Shown: positions 41,496 through 51,216 of the stretch, piece by piece
Numbering within the stretch: the stretch's first letter is position 1
How the letters are laid out: every line of letters begins with the position of its first letter
Assembly (NCBI GenBank): GCA_965228475.1
Contig: OZ245817.1
Location: 480,001-544,000, forward strand
DNA from: Myxococcota bacterium
GTDB lineage: Bacteria > Myxococcota_A > UBA9160 > JAFDDA01
Direction of reading: 5' to 3'
Length of the DNA stretch: 64,000 nucleotides
The notes under the pieces: generated by a model
The model's database searches: none
Seen by the model: the letters and a program-made list of their open reading frames with translations, nothing else
Told to the model about the DNA's origin: nothing
Position numbers and translations under genes: made by a program

Positions 41496-41611
41496 GCCGG
41501 AGTTGAGCGTTCGGCTCCGTGGCGCGCTCGAAGGAGCCCGCCGCGGGGCCGATTCGCCAAGTTGCGGGGCATTCCGAAGCGAGCCACGTTCCACTCGCGT
41601 CAGGAGGCCCC

Positions 41612-42100
41612 ATGACCGTCGCCGTCAACGGAATCGCGCACATCCAGCTCACCGTCGGGAACGCATCGCACTGCATTCCCTTCTGGGAATCGCTCTGCCA
41701 CTTCCTCGACATGAAGACCCTGATCAAGAACGAGGAGGTCCTCTATTGCATCGGGAGCCGCACCGGCATCCTGATCCGCGGTGCACCGAAGGGAAAGGAG
41801 GACGTGCCCTTCGACCAGGAGACGCCCGGTCTGCACCACTTCTGTTTCCGCGCCCGCGCCCGGGAGGACGTCGACGCCGTCCATACCTTCGTCGACGAGA
41901 CCCTCGGCGCGCGCATCATCCATGGTCCGGAGGAGGGCGCCTTCGCGCCCGGGTACTACTCGATCCTCTTCGAGGATCCCGACGGCATCCGCGTCGAGGT
42001 GAACCACGTCCCGGGCCGCGGCCACTTCGACCAGGGCGGACGGCTCGGCGAGGGCGGGCCCGGGGCCGCGAGTACCTACGGCGAAGACGGGATGGCCTGA
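41612..42100 (+). CDS. VOC/glyoxalase family protein
   Basis: GIAHIQLTV, PGLHHFCFRA, GYYSILFEDPDGIRVEV. Confidence 0.92.
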   Translation: MTVAVNGIAHIQLTVGNASHCIPFWESLCHFLDMKTLIKNEEVLYCIGSRTGILIRGAPKGKEDVPFDQETPGLHHFCFRARAREDVDAVHTFVDETLGARIIHGPEEGAFAPGYYSILFEDPDGIRVEVNHVPGRGHFDQGGRLGEGGPGAASTYGEDGMA

Positions 42101-42101
42101 G

Positions 42102-42170
42102 CCGGGAAAGCCGGCGCCTCCCGTCCGGGAAATCCGGTGCCTCCCGTCCGGGAAAGCCGGCGCCTCCCGT
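42102..42170. repeat. Three tandem 23-bp repeats
   Basis: CCGGGAAAGCCGGCGCCTCCCGT / CCGGGAAATCCGGTGCCTCCCGT / CCGGGAAAGCCGGCGCCTCCCGT, no spacers. Confidence 0.92.
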
Positions 42171-42213
42171 CGTTCCCGCGACACCCGCCGCCCGGGGACG
42201 TCCACTACTCCGT

Positions 42214-43038
42214 ATGGTGTTCCGCAGCCGCCGGGTTCTCGTCTGTGCCGTGCTTGCCGGCGGGTGGCTTTGCGGAGGAGGCCCCGCTCGGGCGCTGGAG
42301 ATCGTCGGCCGGTTCAACGGAGGCGACCTCCCGGCTCCTGCGCTGCTCGCGGGCGGCGGCTCGGTCGAGGAGGTCTTCGAAGCGGCCGCCTCGCTCTGGG
42401 AAACGCACATTCTCGATTCCCACACCCTCGAGATCCAGTACGCCTGGGTGGCCTTTCCCGACGATACGCTCGGCAACGCGTTCGGGTTCGCCGGCCCCGA
42501 TGGCCGGGTGACGTCGGCCTTCATCACCCTCGACAACGACAGTCCCTGGTTCCTAGACCCGACACCCGGGGATTCCTCGGAATGGGCGAGCTTCCTCGAG
42601 CAGCGCTTCGATCTCGGCGCGGGCGAACTCGTCGTCGGGCGGGACTTCACGGATCCGCTGGGCGATGCCCAGCTCGGATGGGACCTCTTCACGGTCTTTC
42701 TCCACGAGATCGGCCACGCCCTCGGCATGGGCGTCGAGTACGCGCGCTACCGAGCCGAAACCGCGGACGGCGACGTCGACGTTGCATCGCCGCTGCCCTT
42801 CGCCGGGACGGAACTCCTCGTGACACCGTCCGGCGGCGCCCACCTGCTGTTGACGTCCGCCTTGCTCTTCCCCTCCGTGAGCCGGGACGCCCGCACGCTC
42901 CCCTCCGATGCCGACGTGCTCGCCGTGGCCCAGGCGGGAAACTTCCGCGAGGTGAGTCTCGCGGTTCCCGAGCCGAAGCTCGTGGGGCTGCTGCTCGCCG
43001 CCGGGCTCGGTGCCGCGTACTTCCGCCGCCCTCGCTAG
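42214..43038 (+). CDS. PEP-CTERM matrixin-like zinc metallopeptidase
   Basis: Signal ending ARA; HEIGHALG; VPEPK + TM + RRPR tail. Confidence 0.85.
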   Translation: MVFRSRRVLVCAVLAGGWLCGGGPARALEIVGRFNGGDLPAPALLAGGGSVEEVFEAAASLWETHILDSHTLEIQYAWVAFPDDTLGNAFGFAGPDGRVTSAFITLDNDSPWFLDPTPGDSSEWASFLEQRFDLGAGELVVGRDFTDPLGDAQLGWDLFTVFLHEIGHALGMGVEYARYRAETADGDVDVASPLPFAGTELLVTPSGGAHLLLTSALLFPSVSRDARTLPSDADVLAVAQAGNFREVSLAVPEPKLVGLLLAAGLGAAYFRRPR

Positions 43039-45383
43039 AGGAGCGGTTCGAGCCGGAGTGTCTCTCCGCGCACCTCCTCGAAGTGCGCGGGCAGCGCATC
43101 GAGCTCGCCGCGGAGCCACGGCTCGATCTGGTCGTCGTAGTGCGGGTCGAAGGGGTGGCCGGCCTGGCCGCCCGGGAGGATCGCGCGGATGCGCATCGGG
43201 TCCCCCATCTCGACGACGGTGCGCATGGCGGCACCGGCTCGGACGCGCTCCGGACGGTCGTATCGGTAGCGGGCCCGTCCCACGCTCGCGTGGTCGCCGC
43301 CCCAGGGAAACGGTCCGCGGTCGAGCCAGCGGGAAAGCGGCGGGACGGCCGCCGCCAGCTCGTGCACGAGGTGGACGGCGTGGTTCGCTTCCCACCGCCA
43401 GCTCGCGTCGTTCGGATCGAAACCCTGGCTCGCCGTTTCGAGGGCGCCGCGGACGAGGGTCTGCCGCTCGCCCCGCCACCACGGGGACGCTTCCGTCGGG
43501 GCGAGGATCAGCCCATCGAGGGCGTGGTTCAGGACGTAGTTGTTCTTCAAGAGCCGTCGATGGAGCTCCGGCCCGAGACGCTCGGCAAAGACCGCCTCCG
43601 CCAGGGCGAGGTACCAGCGCAGGAAGATCGTCGGTGCGGTCGCCGCGGGTTCGTTGACGAGGCCGGGCTCGGCGGCCTGCCAGGCCTCGAGCTCCGTCCG
43701 CGCGCTCGCGGCGGCAGGCGAGAGCGCCCCGTCTCCCAGCAGCGTGAGCAGGTGCGGCAGGAGACGCGCCGCCTGTCCGTTGTGCCAGTCCATCTGGAGG
43801 GCGCGCATCGTCTCCGGCGTGTGATCCCGGCGGCCCGCGAGTACTTCCTGGATCCGGCCGATGCGGTAGCCCGGCGCGTTGTCCGCGGAGACGAGCGGGC
43901 CGGCGCCCGGCGGGTTCACCCGCGCGTTGGCCGCTGCGACGAACCCCTTGGGCGGGTCGATCTCCCGCGGCAGCTCCGCCATCGGGATGAAGCCCCGCCA
44001 TCCCGCTTCCGCCTCGTGGCCCGGCTGCGGAAGGAGCCCCGTGCCCCGGCCGCGCACCGGCAGGAGCCCGACGCTCCGGAAGGCGATGCGGCCCTCGGCG
44101 TCCGCATAGGTGGCGTTGGCGCTCGGCGCGGCGAGCCGGTCGAGGGCGTCGCTCGCGGCGTCCCAGTCCTCTGCGAGGTTGAGTGCGAACAGCGCATCGA
44201 TCCCGAAGCGGTGCTCGGCGGCGTGGTGGCCCGTCCAGGCGAGCGAGAGCGGCGGGTCCTCCTCGAGGAGCGGGCCGTGGCGCGTGTGGACGATCTCGAA
44301 GACCTCGTCCTCACTGCCGCGGACCCGGATCCGGGCTTCCTCGGTGCGCGCCTCGTACCAGCCGTCCGGCCCGAGGAAGCGCAGCGGGTCTTCGGGGTCG
44401 CGCGTCTCGAGGAAGAGGTCCTGGCTGTCGCCGATGTTCGTGAAGCCCCAGGCGAGCCGGTCGTTGATTCCGTTGATGACGCCCGGCAGCCCCGGCACCG
44501 ACCAGCCGCGCAGGCTGCGTTCGCCGAAGAAGAGGTGGACTTCATAGTGGAGGTTCGGGAGGGCGAGCGCATCGTGGGAGTCGAAGGCGAACAGCGGCAC
44601 GCCGGAAGCCGTTCGCGAGCCGGCGACCGCCCAGCCGTTGCTGCCCCGCGAGAGGCTCGGGAGCAGGGCCTGTTCGTAGGCGTCGAGGGCGTCGCGCCGG
44701 GCGAGCATGCGCCGCGCCGCGGCCGCATCCACGACGTAGGGGAAGTCCGGGACGCGGGATTCGTCCGGGAGGAACGCGGCGATCTCCTCGGGCGAGGTCG
44801 CGCTCGCGATGGCGTAGCGCAACAGCTCGTTGCCGGCGTTCCGTCCGGAGGCGTAGGCCATGGCCGCGCCGAGGGCGTAGACGTCGGCCGGTGTCCAGCG
44901 GCGAAGGGGAGTCCAGGTGAGGAGGAGTTCGGGCGGACGGGCATCGAGCCCTTCGAGCCCGGCGTTCACGCCGTCGACGTAGCGGCCGACCAGGGTCCGT
45001 GCTTTCGCATCGGCGTTGGCCTCGATCTCCGCGGCGAGCTGCGGCACGCCCATCTTCCAGAGTTCGCGGTCCGTCTCGAGCAGGGGAGGGCCGAGCAGCT
45101 CCGCGAGCCGCGCCTGGCCGGCGCGGCTGAGAAGCTCCATCTGCCAGAGCCGTTCGCGGGCGTGGAGCACACCCTGGGCGAAGAACGCGTCGCCGAGCGT
45201 CTCGGCGCGCACGTAGGGCCGAGCGCGTTCGTCGAAGCGGATCGTCACCGGCGCAGCGAGCCCGGGAAGCGCGAGCGTCCCGGTGCGCTCGATCCGGGAG
45301 GCGTGGACCCGCCAGCCGAAGACGAGTGCACCCGCCGCCAGTGCGAGGAGCAGGAGCCCGAGCGCCTGGCCGAGGCGCTTCAC
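43035..45383 (-). CDS. Penicillin acylase family Ntn-hydrolase (peptidase S45)
   Basis: N-terminal TM; AQGVLHARERLWQM; GSNGWAV N-terminal nucleophile; PGGQAGHP..PHY.DQ. Confidence 0.93.
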   Translation of the reverse strand: MKRLGQALGLLLLALAAGALVFGWRVHASRIERTGTLALPGLAAPVTIRFDERARPYVRAETLGDAFFAQGVLHARERLWQMELLSRAGQARLAELLGPPLLETDRELWKMGVPQLAAEIEANADAKARTLVGRYVDGVNAGLEGLDARPPELLLTWTPLRRWTPADVYALGAAMAYASGRNAGNELLRYAIASATSPEEIAAFLPDESRVPDFPYVVDAAAARRMLARRDALDAYEQALLPSLSRGSNGWAVAGSRTASGVPLFAFDSHDALALPNLHYEVHLFFGERSLRGWSVPGLPGVINGINDRLAWGFTNIGDSQDLFLETRDPEDPLRFLGPDGWYEARTEEARIRVRGSEDEVFEIVHTRHGPLLEEDPPLSLAWTGHHAAEHRFGIDALFALNLAEDWDAASDALDRLAAPSANATYADAEGRIAFRSVGLLPVRGRGTGLLPQPGHEAEAGWRGFIPMAELPREIDPPKGFVAAANARVNPPGAGPLVSADNAPGYRIGRIQEVLAGRRDHTPETMRALQMDWHNGQAARLLPHLLTLLGDGALSPAAASARTELEAWQAAEPGLVNEPAATAPTIFLRWYLALAEAVFAERLGPELHRRLLKNNYVLNHALDGLILAPTEASPWWRGERQTLVRGALETASQGFDPNDASWRWEANHAVHLVHELAAAVPPLSRWLDRGPFPWGGDHASVGRARYRYDRPERVRAGAAMRTVVEMGDPMRIRAILPGGQAGHPFDPHYDDQIEPWLRGELDALPAHFEEVRGETLRLEPLL

Positions 45384-46240
45384 GCCGCCGCGTCGAGCCC
45401 CGCGCGCGCGCTCACGTCCTGGCAGGCCGCGACGAGGGCGGGTACGAAGACGTCCGCGCGAGCGACGCAGGCGGCGTGGTCCCCCTCCACCTCGAACACG
45501 CGTGCGCCGGGGATCGCCTCCGCGAGCCCGCGCTGGCGCCGCGGCGGGACGAGTTCGTCCTTCGTCGTGACGATCACGGCCGTCGGGACGTCGACCTCCC
45601 CGATCCACGCGTGCGAGGAGAAGCTGCCGACGGCGCCGGTCGCCTGGATCACGCTCGGACCGTCGTGGCCCGAGAGTTCCTCGGCGACCCGGCTGCGCAT
45701 GCCCTCGTGCTGGATTCCCGAGAGCGTGCGTTCGAGCATGCGGCGCTGCACGAGACCGGGGACGAGCCGCGCGCCCGTGGCGACCCAGGGCATGAGCCAC
45801 CGGGCGAAGGGGCTCGCGTGGCGTGTGCTGAAATGTCGCGCCGTCGCGGCGAGGACGAGGCCGGCGATGCTCTCGGGGTGGCGCCGCCAGGCGAGCGAGG
45901 CGATCGGTCCGCCCATCGAGTAGCCCACGGCGATGAGGCGTCTCGCTCCGAGATCGAAGGCCGCGTCGACGGCGTCGTCGGCGCAGTCTTCGAGCCGGAA
46001 GCGGCGCGTGCGCAGGCCGCGGCCGTGGCCGCGGTGGTCGATCGCCAACACGCGGAAGTGTTCGGAGAGCGGGCGGAACGCGGGGCCCCAGTTCAGCCGG
46101 GCGGTGGCGCCCAGGCCGTGGAGCAGCAGCACGGCAGGCGCGTCCGGGTGCGGCCCCGGGATGTCCCGCATGAAGACGTCGCCGCGTTCTTCGAGGGTGA
46201 TGATGCGGTCGATCGGCCGCTCTTCTTCCTTTGCCGCCAT
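45380..46240 (-). CDS. Alpha/beta hydrolase
   Basis: LLHG, DHRGHG, GYSMGG nucleophile elbow, DELVPP, GDH. Confidence 0.92.
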   Translation of the reverse strand: MAAKEEERPIDRIITLEERGDVFMRDIPGPHPDAPAVLLLHGLGATARLNWGPAFRPLSEHFRVLAIDHRGHGRGLRTRRFRLEDCADDAVDAAFDLGARRLIAVGYSMGGPIASLAWRRHPESIAGLVLAATARHFSTRHASPFARWLMPWVATGARLVPGLVQRRMLERTLSGIQHEGMRSRVAEELSGHDGPSVIQATGAVGSFSSHAWIGEVDVPTAVIVTTKDELVPPRRQRGLAEAIPGARVFEVEGDHAACVARADVFVPALVAACQDVSARAGLDAAA

Positions 46241-46331
46241 GAATCTCCGTCCCGTCCTGCGCGTCCGAACCATGATGGCACGCCCCGCGCTTCTTGACCC
46301 CTCGGACGGTAGTTGGGACACTCGACGGGTG

Positions 46332-47108
46332 ATGTCCGCCCGAAGCTCCCGCCCGGCATCGTGGAAGCGATGGCTCGGCGCCGCCGTTCTCGGTCTCGCC
46401 GCGTTTCAGATGAGCCTCCCCGCCCTGGCCATGGAGGGCCGCGGCCGCAGCATGGAAGGGCGCGGCCGGGGCCCGATCCGCATGCCCATGCCGCCGACCG
46501 GTCCGCCCCCGAGCCTGCCGCCCGGGACGATCCTGCCGGGCATGCCGCCGGGCGTGAGCCAGGCGATCCTGAACTCGCTCCGCCGCCGCTCGATTCCGCG
46601 CATGGGCCCGATCTCGGACGAGCAGCTCATCGCCGAGCTCAACGCGGAGCTGCGGCGCGCCCAGAACGATCTCAACAACCACCAGGGCTCGTACAACATC
46701 ATCCGCGTGATCAAGTACGGAGGCGCGCTCGTCGCCGTACTCACCGGCACCGCCTTCTTCGGTCCGGCAGGGGGTCTCGCCGCAGGCGCGCTTTTCCGCG
46801 GCACGGAGGGGACGACCGAAGTGTTCGTCCGTTCGAGGGATTCCCAGCGGACCGGCCGGGAGGTCGTCTACCAGGGGCTCGGCGAGCTCGCCGGGGCGGC
46901 CACTGGGAATCCGGTCGTCGGATTCGTGGTTCGGGCCGGGACCAAGGAAGGCGCCCGCGCGATCGGCGAGGCCGATCTCACCTTCCTGTTCGAGAACGAG
47001 AAGAAGCGCGGCGGGGTGAAGACCTCGGGCGCCAACGCGCGAACGGAGAGCTCGCACCCCGGTTTCGGACCCTCCTCGCCGGCCGGCTGGCGGGGGCCGA
47101 TCAAGTGA
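46332..47108 (+). CDS. Secreted hypothetical protein (MEGRGR repeats, Pro-rich, coiled coil, Gly-rich hydrophobic helices)
   Basis: Signal ending PALA then MEGRGRSMEGRGRG; host-like codon usage; GTGA overlap with next gene. Confidence 0.75.
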   Translation: MSARSSRPASWKRWLGAAVLGLAAFQMSLPALAMEGRGRSMEGRGRGPIRMPMPPTGPPPSLPPGTILPGMPPGVSQAILNSLRRRSIPRMGPISDEQLIAELNAELRRAQNDLNNHQGSYNIIRVIKYGGALVAVLTGTAFFGPAGGLAAGALFRGTEGTTEVFVRSRDSQRTGREVVYQGLGELAGAATGNPVVGFVVRAGTKEGARAIGEADLTFLFENEKKRGGVKTSGANARTESSHPGFGPSSPAGWRGPIK

Positions 47109-47977
47109 CGGAGTTCCGCCGGCGGGGCGCCCGCCACGCTTTCTCCCTCGTGTTCGGTCTGCTCACTCTCTTCGTGGGGCTTCCCGCGGCCGGGGCCGAA
47201 CCCGTCGACGACGCGGCCGTGGCCGCGGGCCTCGACTCGCTCCACGTGAGTCAGACGGTGGCCTGGGCGCTCGAGGGCGTGGCCCGGCCGGAGAAGATCG
47301 GCCGCGTGCGCTTCGCCGCAGAAGCCGCACGCCCCAGGCTGGACCCGGATGTCCATGCCGCCGGCATGCGCCTCGCCGACGTCACGATCGCGGGCGAGGA
47401 GGTCGCGCAGGAGGGAGGCCGGCGCGTGTTCGGCACGCTGACCCACGAGAGCCCTCTCGGCTTCCGGGCGATCAACGACTTCGCGGCCCGCTACCGCACC
47501 GAGAAGGGACGCTACGTCGTCGAGGAGAGTCACGCGCAGGCCCGCTTCCTCGAGGCGCCGCGGGTCGCGTTCGCCGCGGTCGAGGCGGCGAAGGTGCCCG
47601 CGGAGTTCCTCGGCGGCGCCTACGAGCCCCATCGGCTCGTTTCATTCCTGAGGAAGAACGGCGTCGACCCGACGCGGGTCGACGAGGCGCCGCGCGAGTA
47701 CGTCGTGTTCGCCGTCCTGCTCGACCGCCTCCCGCCCGGGAAGGGGTTCTTCGTCTCCGACGAGACCAGGAAGAAGAAGAAGCCCAAGCGCACCGAAGCC
47801 GGGCTGACGGTGTTCTCGCGCGAGCGGTGGCACGCTGCCGCGCTGCGATCGACCTTCGCCTTCGGCGCGAAGAAGCCCCGCTACTTCCACGCCGCCGTCA
47901 CGGACGAGCGGGGCCGTTCCAAGCGCGTCGGTCTGCTCGAAAGCGGCGGTCTCGTCCCCTTCGAGCCGGAGGGATGA
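47105..47977 (+). CDS. Secreted hypothetical protein
   Basis: GTG 47105; signal ending AAGA; coupled to both neighbours by 4-nt overlaps. Confidence 0.75.
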   Translation: MTEFRRRGARHAFSLVFGLLTLFVGLPAAGAEPVDDAAVAAGLDSLHVSQTVAWALEGVARPEKIGRVRFAAEAARPRLDPDVHAAGMRLADVTIAGEEVAQEGGRRVFGTLTHESPLGFRAINDFAARYRTEKGRYVVEESHAQARFLEAPRVAFAAVEAAKVPAEFLGGAYEPHRLVSFLRKNGVDPTRVDEAPREYVVFAVLLDRLPPGKGFFVSDETRKKKKPKRTEAGLTVFSRERWHAAALRSTFAFGAKKPRYFHAAVTDERGRSKRVGLLESGGLVPFEPEG

Positions 47978-49284
47978 GGCCGCTCGGGCGGCGGGCCCTT
48001 CTGAAGGGCGCGCTAGGCAGCGTGGCCCTCGGGCTCGCGGGGTCGCGTCTCGGGCGCGCGGAAGTTGCTCCCGCGAAGACCGCGACCTACTTCGTGCCCG
48101 GGTATGCACCGGATCGGGCCTACCACCGGGGGCGCCCCGTGCGCGAGGATCCGGCGCTCACTGCCGCGGTCCCGCGAGATTGGCAGGGCGCCCTCTCGCT
48201 CCTGACCCGGGTCGACGAAGGCGACGGCTCGGTCCGCCGCGCGCTCTTCCCCGTGGCCGGCCACGAGATCACGATCTCCCCGGACGGCCAACACGGCGTG
48301 TTCAACAGCCTGAACGACGGCCACTGCGTCGCGTTCTCGCCCGAAACGCTCGAGTCCCGCGGCATCCACTCCCACGGAGAGGGCTTCATCGGCGCGGGGC
48401 ACGCCTTCTATCTGCCCGAAGGCGGCCCGCTCGTGATCGCGGAAAGGCGGGAGTGGCGGGCGTACACGGGCAAGCCCGAGGATCACCACGGCCGCATCAC
48501 CCTGCGCGACCCGGAGACCTTCGCGCTGCTCGAAGCCTTCGATTGCCGCGGCATGGCGCCCCACGAGATCGGTCTCACCGCGGACGGCCGGCACGTCGCC
48601 GTGGCGAACTACGGCAAGACGCTCTGGCCCGACGGCACCTGGCGCGACGGGCTGCTCCATCGCGTCGCACCGAGCCTGACCGTGATCGAGCTCGCGAGCG
48701 GGCGGCTCGTCCACGAGGTCCGAAACCCGGACCCGCGCCACGAGGTCCGTCACCTCGCGGCCCACAGCCTCTCGCGCGTGTTCGCGATCTCGGCGCGGAT
48801 GGAGAGCTTCGGAGAGGGGCAGAAGTCCATGCGCGACTGGGAGGAAGGCGTCTACGAAGCGGACGTCTACTCCGGCGGCGAAGAGATCGGGTACCTGCCT
48901 TCGCCGCTCCTGCGCTACGAGCTCACGGAGGGTCCCTCCCGGGCGACGGAGTCGTTCACCGAGGACCCGCTCTTCATGCGCTACGGCCAGAGCATCGTCT
49001 ACGACCCGGCCCACGACGAAGTCATCGCGACCTATCCGACCCGGCACGCGGTGGTGGTCTTCTCGGGAGAGGACGGCGCCGTCCGTCGCGTCCTCCGCAC
49101 GGATCGCCTGGGTCTGCGGCAGCCGCGCGGCGTGGTGCTGCACCCCGATGGCAGGCACTACGTCGTTTCGGGATGGTGGCAGGGCGCGCGGGCCTTTTCG
49201 CGGGGGGAACACGCGCCGGTGTCGCGCCTCGACCGGCACGAGGTCTGGTTCGGCCACAGTCACCTGGCGGTTGCGGCGGCCTGA
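47974..49284 (+). CDS. Tat-exported DUF1513-like beta-propeller protein
   Basis: GRRALLKG twin-arginine signal; GH, GHA, APHEIGL..DG..VAVANYG, PSL..I....G.L, RHLA motifs. Confidence 0.75.
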   Translation: MRPLGRRALLKGALGSVALGLAGSRLGRAEVAPAKTATYFVPGYAPDRAYHRGRPVREDPALTAAVPRDWQGALSLLTRVDEGDGSVRRALFPVAGHEITISPDGQHGVFNSLNDGHCVAFSPETLESRGIHSHGEGFIGAGHAFYLPEGGPLVIAERREWRAYTGKPEDHHGRITLRDPETFALLEAFDCRGMAPHEIGLTADGRHVAVANYGKTLWPDGTWRDGLLHRVAPSLTVIELASGRLVHEVRNPDPRHEVRHLAAHSLSRVFAISARMESFGEGQKSMRDWEEGVYEADVYSGGEEIGYLPSPLLRYELTEGPSRATESFTEDPLFMRYGQSIVYDPAHDEVIATYPTRHAVVVFSGEDGAVRRVLRTDRLGLRQPRGVVLHPDGRHYVVSGWWQGARAFSRGEHAPVSRLDRHEVWFGHSHLAVAAA

Positions 49285-49294
49285 ACGTTCCCGG

Positions 49295-50248
49295 TCAGCG
49301 CCCCATTCGGCCCATGCCGCGCCCTTCGACGCGAGGCGGGGAGGGCGGCCGGCCGCGGCCTTCCATCGGCACCTTCGGCCCGGTTGCACCCGGCGTGACG
49401 ATCGGGCTCCGCCCCGCGGCGCCGCGGCGGACGTTCTCGCGGGCGGCATCGCCGCCGGGCCCGCCGTTCTCCGTCGTCATGTCGTCGAAGTCGACGCCGA
49501 GGCGGTCCTCGGCGAGCTGGCGAAGGATCTCCCGCGCCCGCGGGTTGTCGATGCCCGTGATGAACTGCCAGAGCGAGTCGATGTCCTGCCGGTCGGCGTC
49601 GATCCGGTCGAGCATGCCCGAGAGTTCCTCGAGCCGGTCGTTCAGCCGGGTCGCCCCGCGTTCGATGCGCCGGCGGGTCCGGGCGACGCCGGTGCGGTCG
49701 ATGTGGGCGTCGAGCCGTCCGCCGACCTCGGCGTCGAAGTATTCCTCGAGCAGCGCGCCGACCTCGCCGGTGCGGTCGAAGATCGGCCGCAGCGGGCGCT
49801 TGGCGATCTCGAGCACGCGGTTGCGGATGCGATCCACCTGTTCGAACACGTGACCGACCGGCCCGGAGACGTGGCGCGCGGCGTTGCGGACCTCGTTCTG
49901 GACACCCCGGGCCACCGTCGTCGCTCCGCGGACGGCGCCGTCTTCGCCGAACAGTCCGTGACCGACCTCGCGGACGAACACGACGAGCGGGAAGCCGCGG
50001 CTGCGCCGCCGGCGGGCCGCGCGCCGCGCCGCCAGCCGGGCGGCTTCCGCGGCCGCCGCCTGCCGCCGCTCCTCGTTCAGCTGGCCGAGGTTCCCGCCCC
50101 GCTCCTGGTCCGCCGCCGCACGCTGCTGACGCATCGTCTCGAGCGTGCTCTGCAGGCGCGAGACCGTCGGGGAGGTTCCCTCCGGGTTCGCGACCGCGTC
50201 GGGAGGGACGAAGGCGAGGAGCGCCACGACGAGCATGAAGCGCTTCAT
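49295..50248 (-). CDS. Secreted coiled-coil hypothetical protein with C-terminal MEGRGR motifs
   Basis: Signal MKRFMLVVALLAFVPPDAVA; helical body; tail PMEGRGRPPSPPRVEGRGMGRMGR. Confidence 0.75.
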   Translation of the reverse strand: MKRFMLVVALLAFVPPDAVANPEGTSPTVSRLQSTLETMRQQRAAADQERGGNLGQLNEERRQAAAAEAARLAARRAARRRRSRGFPLVVFVREVGHGLFGEDGAVRGATTVARGVQNEVRNAARHVSGPVGHVFEQVDRIRNRVLEIAKRPLRPIFDRTGEVGALLEEYFDAEVGGRLDAHIDRTGVARTRRRIERGATRLNDRLEELSGMLDRIDADRQDIDSLWQFITGIDNPRAREILRQLAEDRLGVDFDDMTTENGGPGGDAARENVRRGAAGRSPIVTPGATGPKVPMEGRGRPPSPPRVEGRGMGRMGR

Positions 50249-51153
50249 TGCAGCACCAGGGGGTTGGCGCGCACGTAGAAGAGGCCGCCGTCCTTGAACC
50301 CCACCGAGAGCTGCCCGGTGACGACGACCTCGCCGGCCTTCATCACCGCATCGGTGAGCTCCATGTACTGGTACTTCTCTTCGCGGATCAGCTGCGACAT
50401 GTCGGCGAAGCGCATGCCGTTCAGGAACTGGTAGGGCCGGACGAGGGGCACGAGGGCTTCGACCTTGTCCGCCTTGAAGCGCTGCTCGTCGAAGAGGCGG
50501 CCCTCGACGAAGGTGAACTCGCGTCCGAGCCGGTGGTAGGTCCAGATCTCCGTCCGCACGACGAGCTTGGTCTTCGCCTTGTTGGCCGCGACGTAGATCG
50601 CGAAGTCATCGGGCATGCCGTGCTTCGCGATGACCTTGCGCTGGGCGGCGCTCGCTTCGTCGAGCGTCGCGAGGTTGGCGACGGCGGCGTCCGCCCAGGC
50701 ACTCTCGGGTGCAGCGGACGCAGCGGCTTCGTAGTCCGCCCGGGCCTTGGCCCAGTTCCCCTGCCGCTCTCGCGCGAGCCCGCGGTGGTAGAGCGCGGCT
50801 GCGCTCTTCGGCTCCTTCGAGATCGCGTGGTCGAAGTCCTTGATGGCCTTGCCGACACGTCCACGCTGGAGGTGGTGCAGGCCCCGCGCGACGCGCACGT
50901 TCGTTTCGCCGGGCCGCTTCTTGACCTGCTGGTCGAGGAAGCGGGTCTTCAGACGGCCGATCTCCGGGCGCGGGTTCTGCGCGGCGGCTTCGGCATCCGC
51001 GGAGAGGTGCCACTCCTTCAGCCAGAGATCGACCTGCGAGAGGGCGGCGACGTCGGTCGCGAGCGGCGGCCAGGGCCCGGCCTCTGCCCGACCAGCTGCC
51101 AGGAGCAAGAGCATCGAGAGCGGGAGAAGGAGCCGGACACGAAGCGATACCAT
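50245..51153 (-). CDS. Secreted TPR-repeat protein
   Basis: Signal ending AEA; ARG...G...KAIKDFDHAI..EP, ALYHRGLA...G...ARADY..A TPRs. Confidence 0.82.
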   Translation of the reverse strand: MVSLRVRLLLPLSMLLLLAAGRAEAGPWPPLATDVAALSQVDLWLKEWHLSADAEAAAQNPRPEIGRLKTRFLDQQVKKRPGETNVRVARGLHHLQRGRVGKAIKDFDHAISKEPKSAAALYHRGLARERQGNWAKARADYEAAASAAPESAWADAAVANLATLDEASAAQRKVIAKHGMPDDFAIYVAANKAKTKLVVRTEIWTYHRLGREFTFVEGRLFDEQRFKADKVEALVPLVRPYQFLNGMRFADMSQLIREEKYQYMELTDAVMKAGEVVVTGQLSVGFKDGGLFYVRANPLVLQ

Positions 51154-51216
51154 GGGTCCAGTCTATGCCAGCGCCCGCCGCGAAGGGAAGGCAGCAGATC
51201 CCTCGCTGCCGGCGGC

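Follow-up and report, generated by a model that had tools for sequence, protein, structure and literature searches.

The window analysed here, a stretch of 64,000 nucleotides corresponding to positions 480,001-544,000 of the single-contig 5.0 Mb genome (5,006,157 bp, 70% G+C) of a Myxococcota bacterium, encodes two neighbouring proteins, designated A and B, that carry the same short peptide motif, MEGRGR or a close variant, in two copies at opposite ends. The motif is real, rare in the genome, kept in the B family, located in disordered termini and not a general tag; its probable role is that of a small tag for docking or processing in a cell-envelope gene cluster that is rare and undescribed. 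Metagenome assemblies seem to be the only source from which the organism is known. The two genes and their motif copies, numbered from the first letter of the window, are as follows.

46332..47108, + strand: protein A, 258 aa (open reading frame with translation; no Pfam/NCBIfam family)
46332..46430, + strand: predicted Sec signal peptide; its A-x-A site, LPALA, abuts the motif (sequence reading; hydrophobic 19-mer in residues 14-35)
46431..46448, + strand: motif copy 1 of A, MEGRGR (ATG GAG GGC CGC GGC CGC)
46452..46469, + strand: motif copy 2 of A, MEGRGR (ATG GAA GGG CGC GGC CGG)
46470..46556, + strand: Pro/Met/Gly-rich linker of A, GPIRMPMPPTGPPPSLPPGTILPGMPPGV, which together with EGRG forms the module common to A and B
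49295..50248, - strand: protein B, 317 aa (no Pfam/NCBIfam family)
49349..49366, - strand: motif copy 1 of B, MEGRGR (P294-G299 invariant in 4/4 family members)
49313..49330, - strand: motif copy 2 of B, VEGRGM (E308, G309 and G311 invariant in 4/4, giving E-G-x-G)

The sequences and coordinates of the motif in A and B reported in the earlier note were all confirmed when the sequence was re-read. Protein A has a signal-peptide-like N-terminus ending in LPALA, followed by MEGRGR-S-MEGRGR and the Pro/Met-rich stretch, so that the motif would supply the first residues of the mature protein. The gene caller's version of A (P0001, 232 aa) starts at M27 and lacks most of the signal peptide; the start at 46332 was favoured because both homologues of A have signal-like N-termini. 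Beyond the linker, A consists of a helix, a Gly-rich hydrophobic segment (residues 123-151) and the extreme C-terminus PAGWRGPIK. Met occurs four times within the first 20 residues of the mature protein and five times within the first 38. Protein B has a signal peptide (residues 1-22, its only hydrophobic 19-mer in a hydropathy scan), an all-helical Arg-rich body (16% Arg) and a disordered tail that bears the motif and ends in P-MEGRGR-PPSPPR-VEGRGM-GRMGR-stop, with 3 Met in the last 23 residues. The AlphaFold2 model of B is helical, with a mean predicted local distance difference test score (pLDDT) of 53.7 and values below 50 for residues 249-317. Both proteins had been described as secreted; their signal-like N-termini, seen by hydropathy and in homologues, agree with this, and the assignment is a prediction from sequence reading. 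They had also been called otherwise dissimilar, which was borne out, since BLASTP aligned only the motif region (E 0.038) and a profile-profile comparison of the two families gave 2% probability; A and B are therefore unrelated outside the motif. Searches of the ESM Atlas gave no lead for A (best score 0.80) and no usable match for B, and PDB sequence and profile searches returned nothing for A, B or the DUF1513 protein encoded between them.

The pattern [MV]EGRG[RM] occurred 12 times in the six-frame translation of the whole genome. Four occurrences were in A and B, and the remaining eight were all VEGRGR. MEGRGR itself occurred three times, every time within A or B, and EGRG followed within 8 residues by [MP]P[MPS]P occurred twice, once in each protein. 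With all of the MEGRGR copies (3/3) and both composite modules (2/2) confined to A and B, the motif does not behave in this genome as the background of GC-rich Gly/Arg sequence, the outcome that the earlier note had named as evidence against it. Across 192 other genomes of the order, a degenerate DNA pattern for MEGRGR gave 35 matches in 32 genomes, with a maximum of two per genome, compared with three matches in this genome; a reversed-pattern control gave 16. None of the 29 instances that were read, out of the 35, lay in the mature N-terminus or C-terminal tail of an exported protein; they fell in histidine-kinase ATPase boxes, at other internal positions or in non-coding frames. Part of these background matches is explained by the recurrence of MEGRGR in the ATP-binding N-box region of histidine kinases, in the form NA..A-MEGRGR (L028, L033, L047, L050 and L051). 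In related genomes the motif thus occurs at a background rate, and with 0/29 instances in exported-protein termini it is not a general tag in the lineage.

Homologues of B were limited to three among 5.8 billion proteins: P0003 (72% identity), P0004 (65%) and P0005 (40%); the contigs of P0004 and P0005 measure 2,307 and 8,967 bp. In the resulting four-sequence alignment, P294-M-E-G-R-G299 was invariant at 6/6 positions, with identity down to 40%, compared with 81/256 invariant positions in the body and 9/34 in the rest of the tail. Within a tail that otherwise drifts and is rich in indels, the motif stands out as the best-conserved block. The extreme C-termini of the family vary (RR, RYGR, MGMPPR), and RGRP is present in three of the four tails, P0004 lacking it. 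Because the motif is invariant in the B family and is not background in the genome, a protein-level function is supported for B, and as judged from these sequences the motif is under selection there. Other searches did not enlarge the family: no B homologue was found in the 192 genomes of the order, a plasmid search gave no match for A or B, and a metagenome scan with the B alignment gave no matches. A GTDB-wide scan with B returned one 55-residue match in a Clostridiaceae metagenome-assembled genome (MAG), which was judged spurious. The metagenome scan with P0005 returned only one unrelated protein, a Bacteroidota-like barrel of the outer membrane (963 aa; L005 2597-5488, L004 2-802), which was picked up because its Met/Pro/Gly tail, GGMPPAGMPPGGMEPGGMEPGGMPSGGMPIN, ending in GGMPPGGMEPGGMEPGGMP, resembles the tail of P0005; tails of this kind recur on unrelated exported proteins.

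For A, the word-based search gave no homologue, and two were obtained from a complete HMMER search of 1.84 billion representatives. P0010, from a 954-bp contig, is 55% identical over A residues 38-139; its signal peptide ends in AIA and is followed by SEGRGGRPSMPMPPMGR, which holds one degenerate copy (SEGRGGR) and then MPMPP, and the EGRG core stands directly after the signal-peptidase site (AIA, then SEGRGGRPSMPMPP), in the same place as in A. P0011, protein MCP5373148.1 from a MAG named by its source as Hyphomicrobiales (167,430-bp contig), is 32% identical over the full length. Conservation in orthologues, on which the earlier note had made its proposal depend, thus held for B, with P-M-E-G-R-G in 4/4 sequences, and held only in part for A, with one degenerate copy at 55% identity and none at 32%. 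Because the A family keeps the motif poorly, the doubled copy in A may be a recent 21-nt tandem duplication. PAGWRGPIK (A residues 250-258, window 47079-47105) is identical in P0011; far better kept than EGRG in the A family, it may be the real terminal tag of A. No homologue of A was found in 40 relatives, and marginal matches (E 0.002-0.009) in 7 of 400 genomes of the phylum were judged spurious.

Both genes belong to a cluster of five that is arranged as two convergent operons of translationally coupled genes, A-C-DUF1513 on the forward strand and TPR-B on the reverse strand. The remaining members, and the C-terminal domain of the TPR protein (the X domain), are located as follows.

47105..47977, + strand: protein C, 290 aa, exported (GTG start overlapping the stop codon of A; no family)
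47974..49284, + strand: DUF1513 beta-propeller protein (Pfam PF07433; ATG overlapping the stop codon of C)
50245..51153, - strand: exported TPR protein, 302 aa (Pfam TPR_2 1.3e-11 and others; stop codon overlapping the start of B)
50248-50646: X domain of the TPR protein, residues 170-302

Start and stop codons overlap at A/C (GTGA), C/DUF1513 (ATGA) and TPR/B (ATGA), and the two convergent stop codons are only 10 nt apart. The content of G+C at third codon positions is 0.88-0.92 across the cluster genes (0.88 in A), a coding-type value from which the open reading frames were taken to be real genes. Export signals are predicted on all five proteins from a reading of their N-termini by eye and a hydropathy scan, supported for A and B by the signal-like N-termini of homologues. 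No matches to Pfam or NCBIfam families were found for A, B, C or the X domain. The Pfam scan covered six cluster and flanking proteins and 17 further neighbours, 23 proteins in total, which included a penicillin amidase and an alpha/beta hydrolase. A scan for terminators and promoters gave nothing above shuffled sequence.

In the same-genus genome G001 (89% complete), the flanking enoyl-CoA hydratase was present at 85% DNA identity, and neither a DNA match to the cluster nor protein matches for A, B, the DUF1513 protein or the C-terminal domain of the TPR protein were found; on this basis the cluster was considered accessory. G001 has no DNA match from the penicillin-amidase gene to the TPR gene (window 41500-51200), and the enoyl-CoA hydratase and the genes beyond it match G001 on two different contigs with other neighbours, which suggests that window 41500-51200 is an accessory island of about 10 kb or the site of a rearrangement. 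Apart from relatives of the DUF1513 protein and of the X domain, the cluster's families had no members among the 192 other genomes of the order.

The reading that we tentatively prefer, although we would not call it probable, is that EGRG acts as a bivalent docking peptide for a partner shared by A and B. The core E-G-R-G, usually as M-E-G-R-G-R and followed by a Pro/Met stretch, would be a selectively maintained short linear motif, held in two copies within disordered, exposed ends (at the start of mature A and in the C-terminal tail of B). It would bring A and B to the same periplasmic or envelope partner, and this partner would tie the A-C-DUF1513 and TPR-B operons into one exported assembly of five proteins. 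Among candidate receptors, the TPR array of the protein whose gene is translationally coupled to that of B comes first and the DUF1513 propeller second. That the motif serves the same purpose in A and B, that this purpose is docking, and which protein is the receptor are points that we infer. The further suggestion that the operons form one system draws on gene adjacency, on the absence of matches in G001 for four of the five genes and on a contig figure shared by P0003 and P0007. In a more elaborate version, which we regard as unlikely, a private EGRG plus Pro/Met address would recruit a Gly-rich, membrane-active A and a basic, helical B to a hub formed by the TPR protein or the propeller; the result would be a five-protein envelope machine of undescribed families, in which the TPR module and the EGRG tail had been co-acquired onto an older pair of X-domain and helical proteins.

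The candidate receptor has a signal peptide, about three TPR repeats (residues ~80-165) and the C-terminal, beta-rich X domain. In its structure model (mean pLDDT 48.2) only residues ~70-165 are confident, and this model and that of B are both of too low quality for fold searches. A prediction of the complex between the TPR protein (residues 26-302, 4-row alignment) and the B tail (residues 268-317) gave a score of 0.00, which counts neither for nor against binding. Three homologues were found, P0006 (97%), P0007 (62%) and P0008 (64%, from a 1,709-bp contig). P0006, from another assembly (5,301-bp contig), no longer matches beyond residue ~250 and stops early (…GMRFADIDRADL); either an artefact of the contig end or a difference between strains where TPR and B meet may account for this. 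P0003, a B homologue, and P0007, a TPR homologue, both come from Logan and have the same longest-contig figure, 26,665 bp, so the TPR-B pair is probably retained in another organism.

Relatives of the X domain were found in two genomes of the order, behind a PAN_4 module in G162 (47.7 bits) and alone in G159 (28 bits), and each was directly followed by an exported, helical, Arg-rich protein, with an ATGA overlap at the junction in G162. These gene pairs are located as follows.

L064, 7255-8325 and 8322-9383: X-domain gene and downstream gene
L065, 5960-6502 and 6513-8807: X-domain gene and downstream gene

The downstream proteins in G162 and G159 were not B homologues (2-4 bits) and had no EG.G motif. 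The X domain defines a small unnamed family with N-terminal modules of TPR, PAN_4 or none, and an X-domain protein with an exported helical protein looks like an undescribed two-gene module of the order. The TPR protein fits the role of receptor in that the EGRG tail was seen only where the upstream protein has TPR repeats, in what is a single lineage. A weak hint is that the motif-less homologue of A comes from an NCBI MAG and that none of the three B homologues has an NCBI source.

The second candidate, the only DUF1513 protein in the genome, matches PF07433 at 8.1e-16 (58.4 bits against a gathering cut-off of 27; profile positions 6-300 of 304) and has a twin-arginine-type signal (GRRALLKG). 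In the passages of bioRxiv 10.1101/072470 that deal with the family, the canonical DUF1513 operon consists of genes for EfeO-like, DUF1111, EfeO-like and DUF1513 proteins, and ferrous iron uptake is proposed for it from mutant fitness data. The propeller described here resembles that of the canonical operon in passing the Pfam cut-off and in having an export signal, and it differs in its partners, which are two orphan exported proteins; the Pfam scan of 23 proteins contained neither an EfeO-like (imelysin) nor a DUF1111 protein. Within the order, the nearest relative of the DUF1513 protein is in G006 (L059, G006:C3, 7318-12076); it is 45% identical and has a lipoprotein-like twin-arginine signal. 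Its gene is flanked on one side by that of an exported protein of 511 aa, whose Pro-rich N-terminus shows weak alignment to the linker of A (26% over 97 aa), and on the other by that of an outer-membrane-barrel-like protein ending in Phe.

Protein C contains a stretch, GGRRVFGTLTHESPLGFRA (residues 103-121, window 47411-47467), that matches the repeat motif of OAAH-family lectins. It matches all four repeats of the myxobacterial hemagglutinin 4fbr and also the lectin SfL-1 (7umj); the whole-sequence E value against 4fbr was 2.7e-4, with each single stretch below passing. Membership of the OAAH family is defined by tandem repeats of ~66 residues, each with GGKTLxGTMTYxGEGPIGF, and C has one motif-like stretch; it may be a diverged glycan-binding protein. 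The homologue search with C gave only marginal matches, in 3 of 400 genomes.

Several observations weigh against docking to a shared partner. The comparison covers very few sequences (4 for B, 3 for A and 4 for the TPR protein), P0011 lacks EGRG, and P0010 has a single degenerate copy. The motif is not at the extreme C-terminus, unlike the classical ligands of TPR clamps, and the receptor is a candidate proposed from gene neighbourhood. The linkage of TPR and B by an equal contig figure is indirect, and the DUF1513 homologue in G006 has different neighbours, in which EGRG is absent. In addition, the biased G/R/P/M composition of the two ends gives a chance of about 0.6-0.9% that they share a 6-mer, no negligible figure in a finding picked from the whole window.

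This last point bears on the most serious alternative, that the two motifs have no shared function and reflect coincidence or convergence of low-complexity ends rich in G, R, P and M, the motif mattering to B alone, the doubling in A being due to slippage and the operons being neighbours only. When the disordered segments of A and B were shuffled, a common 6-mer appeared in 339 of 40,000 trials (251 if a single A copy was used) and a common 5-mer in 2,621; chance sharing is unlikely, yet not absurd for a finding selected in this way. The poor retention of the motif by both A homologues, the lack of any other similarity between A and B, and the similar Met/Pro/Gly tails on unrelated exported proteins such as the barrel protein all agree with coincidence. 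It accounts less readily for the fact that two genes 3 kb apart hold all three MEGRGR copies and both composite modules in the 5 Mb genome, for the identical post-signal position of the core in P0010 and for the strict invariance of the motif in B, and we consider it somewhat unlikely. A DNA-level origin was also considered, in which the C-DUF1513 segment could invert in frame at an inverted repeat, swapping the ends of A and B. The segments 46452-46469 and 49349-49366 do form such a repeat (18 nt, 2.9 kb apart, 94% or 17/18 complementary), and an inversion would leave the two reading frames intact, since each strand reads the motif in frame. The earlier note had argued for protein-level selection from differing codons. 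The MEGRGR copies do differ, at 1-3 of 18 bases per pair and always synonymously, but copy 2 of A and copy 1 of B are identical at 17 of 18 bases, and the argument is therefore weaker than it was put. The all-synonymous differences, together with the end of DNA similarity within ~24 nt, nevertheless fit a protein-level rather than a DNA-level constraint. The repeat is confined to the peptide motif, the same 3.2 kb holds 57 comparable GC-rich inverted pairs, the conservation in B homologues is seen at the protein level, and no recombinase was found among the 23 proteins scanned. Contigs from public sequencing runs (the whole stretch in runs of two studies, pieces in a third run), identical in sequence to the window and including no RNA run, had the reference arrangement only, contigs being prone to drop rare variants and at least one of these possibly being the source of the window itself. 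One joint in the runs, 47590 to 49364, with a 20-letter side and a depth of 3.5, is most likely a chance match from another organism. Inversion at this repeat is highly improbable, and the DNA-level reading was rejected.

Two further explanations accept that the peptide has a function and assign it differently. The motif may be a processing site, at which an Arg-specific envelope protease would cut E-G-R-G between R and the second G, trimming the N-terminus of A and freeing the basic C-terminal peptide of B. E-G-R before a cut at G would resemble the preference of factor Xa-type trypsin-like proteases; the motif is exposed, disordered and in tandem, the invariant residues are E-G-R-G and not the flanks, and the location at protein ends is one where trimming would be harmless. 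On the other side, the scan of 23 proteins revealed no enzyme of trypsin-like or subtilisin-like type. We judge processing very unlikely. Alternatively, the ends may bind a ligand, either Cu(I) or Ag(I) through Met or extracellular DNA, polysaccharide or lipopolysaccharide through the Arg-Gly repeats. The Arg content of B would suit the second, and R-G-R-P, which is the AT-hook core, occurs in three of the four B tails; no Pfam AT_hook match was obtained at E<=0.1, and P0004 has no RGRP. Metal binding would suit the Met-rich ends of A and B and the invariant M295, and a functional precedent is offered by the exported copper protein PcoB, whose disordered His/Met-rich N-terminal domain is reported as functional in the passages of PMC12509749 that describe it. 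The conserved part of the present motif, however, contains no His and no MxxM/MxM series, and its invariant E, G, R and G are unlike the composition-only conservation of the PcoB domain, called "poorly conserved" in the same passages. No gene for copper or another metal was found among the 23 proteins scanned, and ligand binding, too, is quite unlikely.

We return to EGRG as a docking peptide for a shared partner of A and B. Short linear motifs are well charted in eukaryotes and poorly in bacterial envelopes, and if this reading is true, the cluster would be a compact, testable case of periplasmic assembly through motifs. Four unannotated families (A, B, C and the X domain) and a non-canonical role of DUF1513 would also become accessible for the first time. 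Each of these families is very rare, with 3-4 sequences among the billions searched, and nothing points to a process of wide importance. Selection on the motif in B is what the alignment indicates; the link between A and B and the choice of receptor are proposed.

Among known systems, the EEVD tails of Hsp70 and Hsp90, bound by the carboxylate clamps of TPR co-chaperones, are similar in several respects: a short conserved peptide lies in a disordered tail, it is paired with a protein of three TPR repeats, here through translational coupling of the genes, and one tag is placed on more than one client. They differ in that E-G-R-G-R is basic, not acidic, and in that all partners here are exported. 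A clamp on a free carboxylate is impossible, because the motif is 18-23 residues from the end of B and N-terminal in A; EEVD-type ligands are acidic and end in a free carboxylate at the extreme C-terminus, and the end of B itself varies. Motifs of the TolB box and TonB box type, found in envelope proteins and colicins, are linear and disordered as well, and the periplasmic beta-propeller TolB binds them. The likeness lies in a Gly-rich, turn-type motif in a disordered exported terminus and in the presence of a periplasmic propeller (DUF1513) in the cluster; the differences are that DUF1513 is not TolB, that the motif has no likeness to the TolB box and that no Tol-Pal genes were seen. The sorting tags PEP-CTERM, MYXO-CTERM, GlyGly-CTERM and LPXTG also place a short conserved motif near the C-terminus of exported proteins. 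In these a transmembrane helix and a basic cluster come after the motif, and many proteins per genome carry it; the tail of B has no hydrophobic segment and the motif has two carriers only, and a sorting tag was rejected. An AT-hook, which has an R-G-R-P core with basic flanks and belongs to proteins of the nucleus or nucleoid, was likewise rejected, as RGRP is missing from A as well as P0004 and the proteins carry export signals. The PcoB N-terminal domain, which according to the passages of PMC12509749 on it matters for function and for the stability of the co-operonic partner, is also a disordered, Met-containing segment directly after a signal peptide; it is poorly conserved and His-rich there, whereas here E-G-R-G is invariant and His is absent. 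Met-rich Cu(I)-binding segments of the periplasm have series of MxM, MxxM or HxxM and conserve composition more than exact sequence; such a segment was rejected, the motif having no His, an invariant P, M, E, G, R and G, and a single MPMPP, in A only. By analogy, the best likeness is to TPR-peptide or propeller-peptide docking, to which the motif appears nearest in mode as a member of neither.

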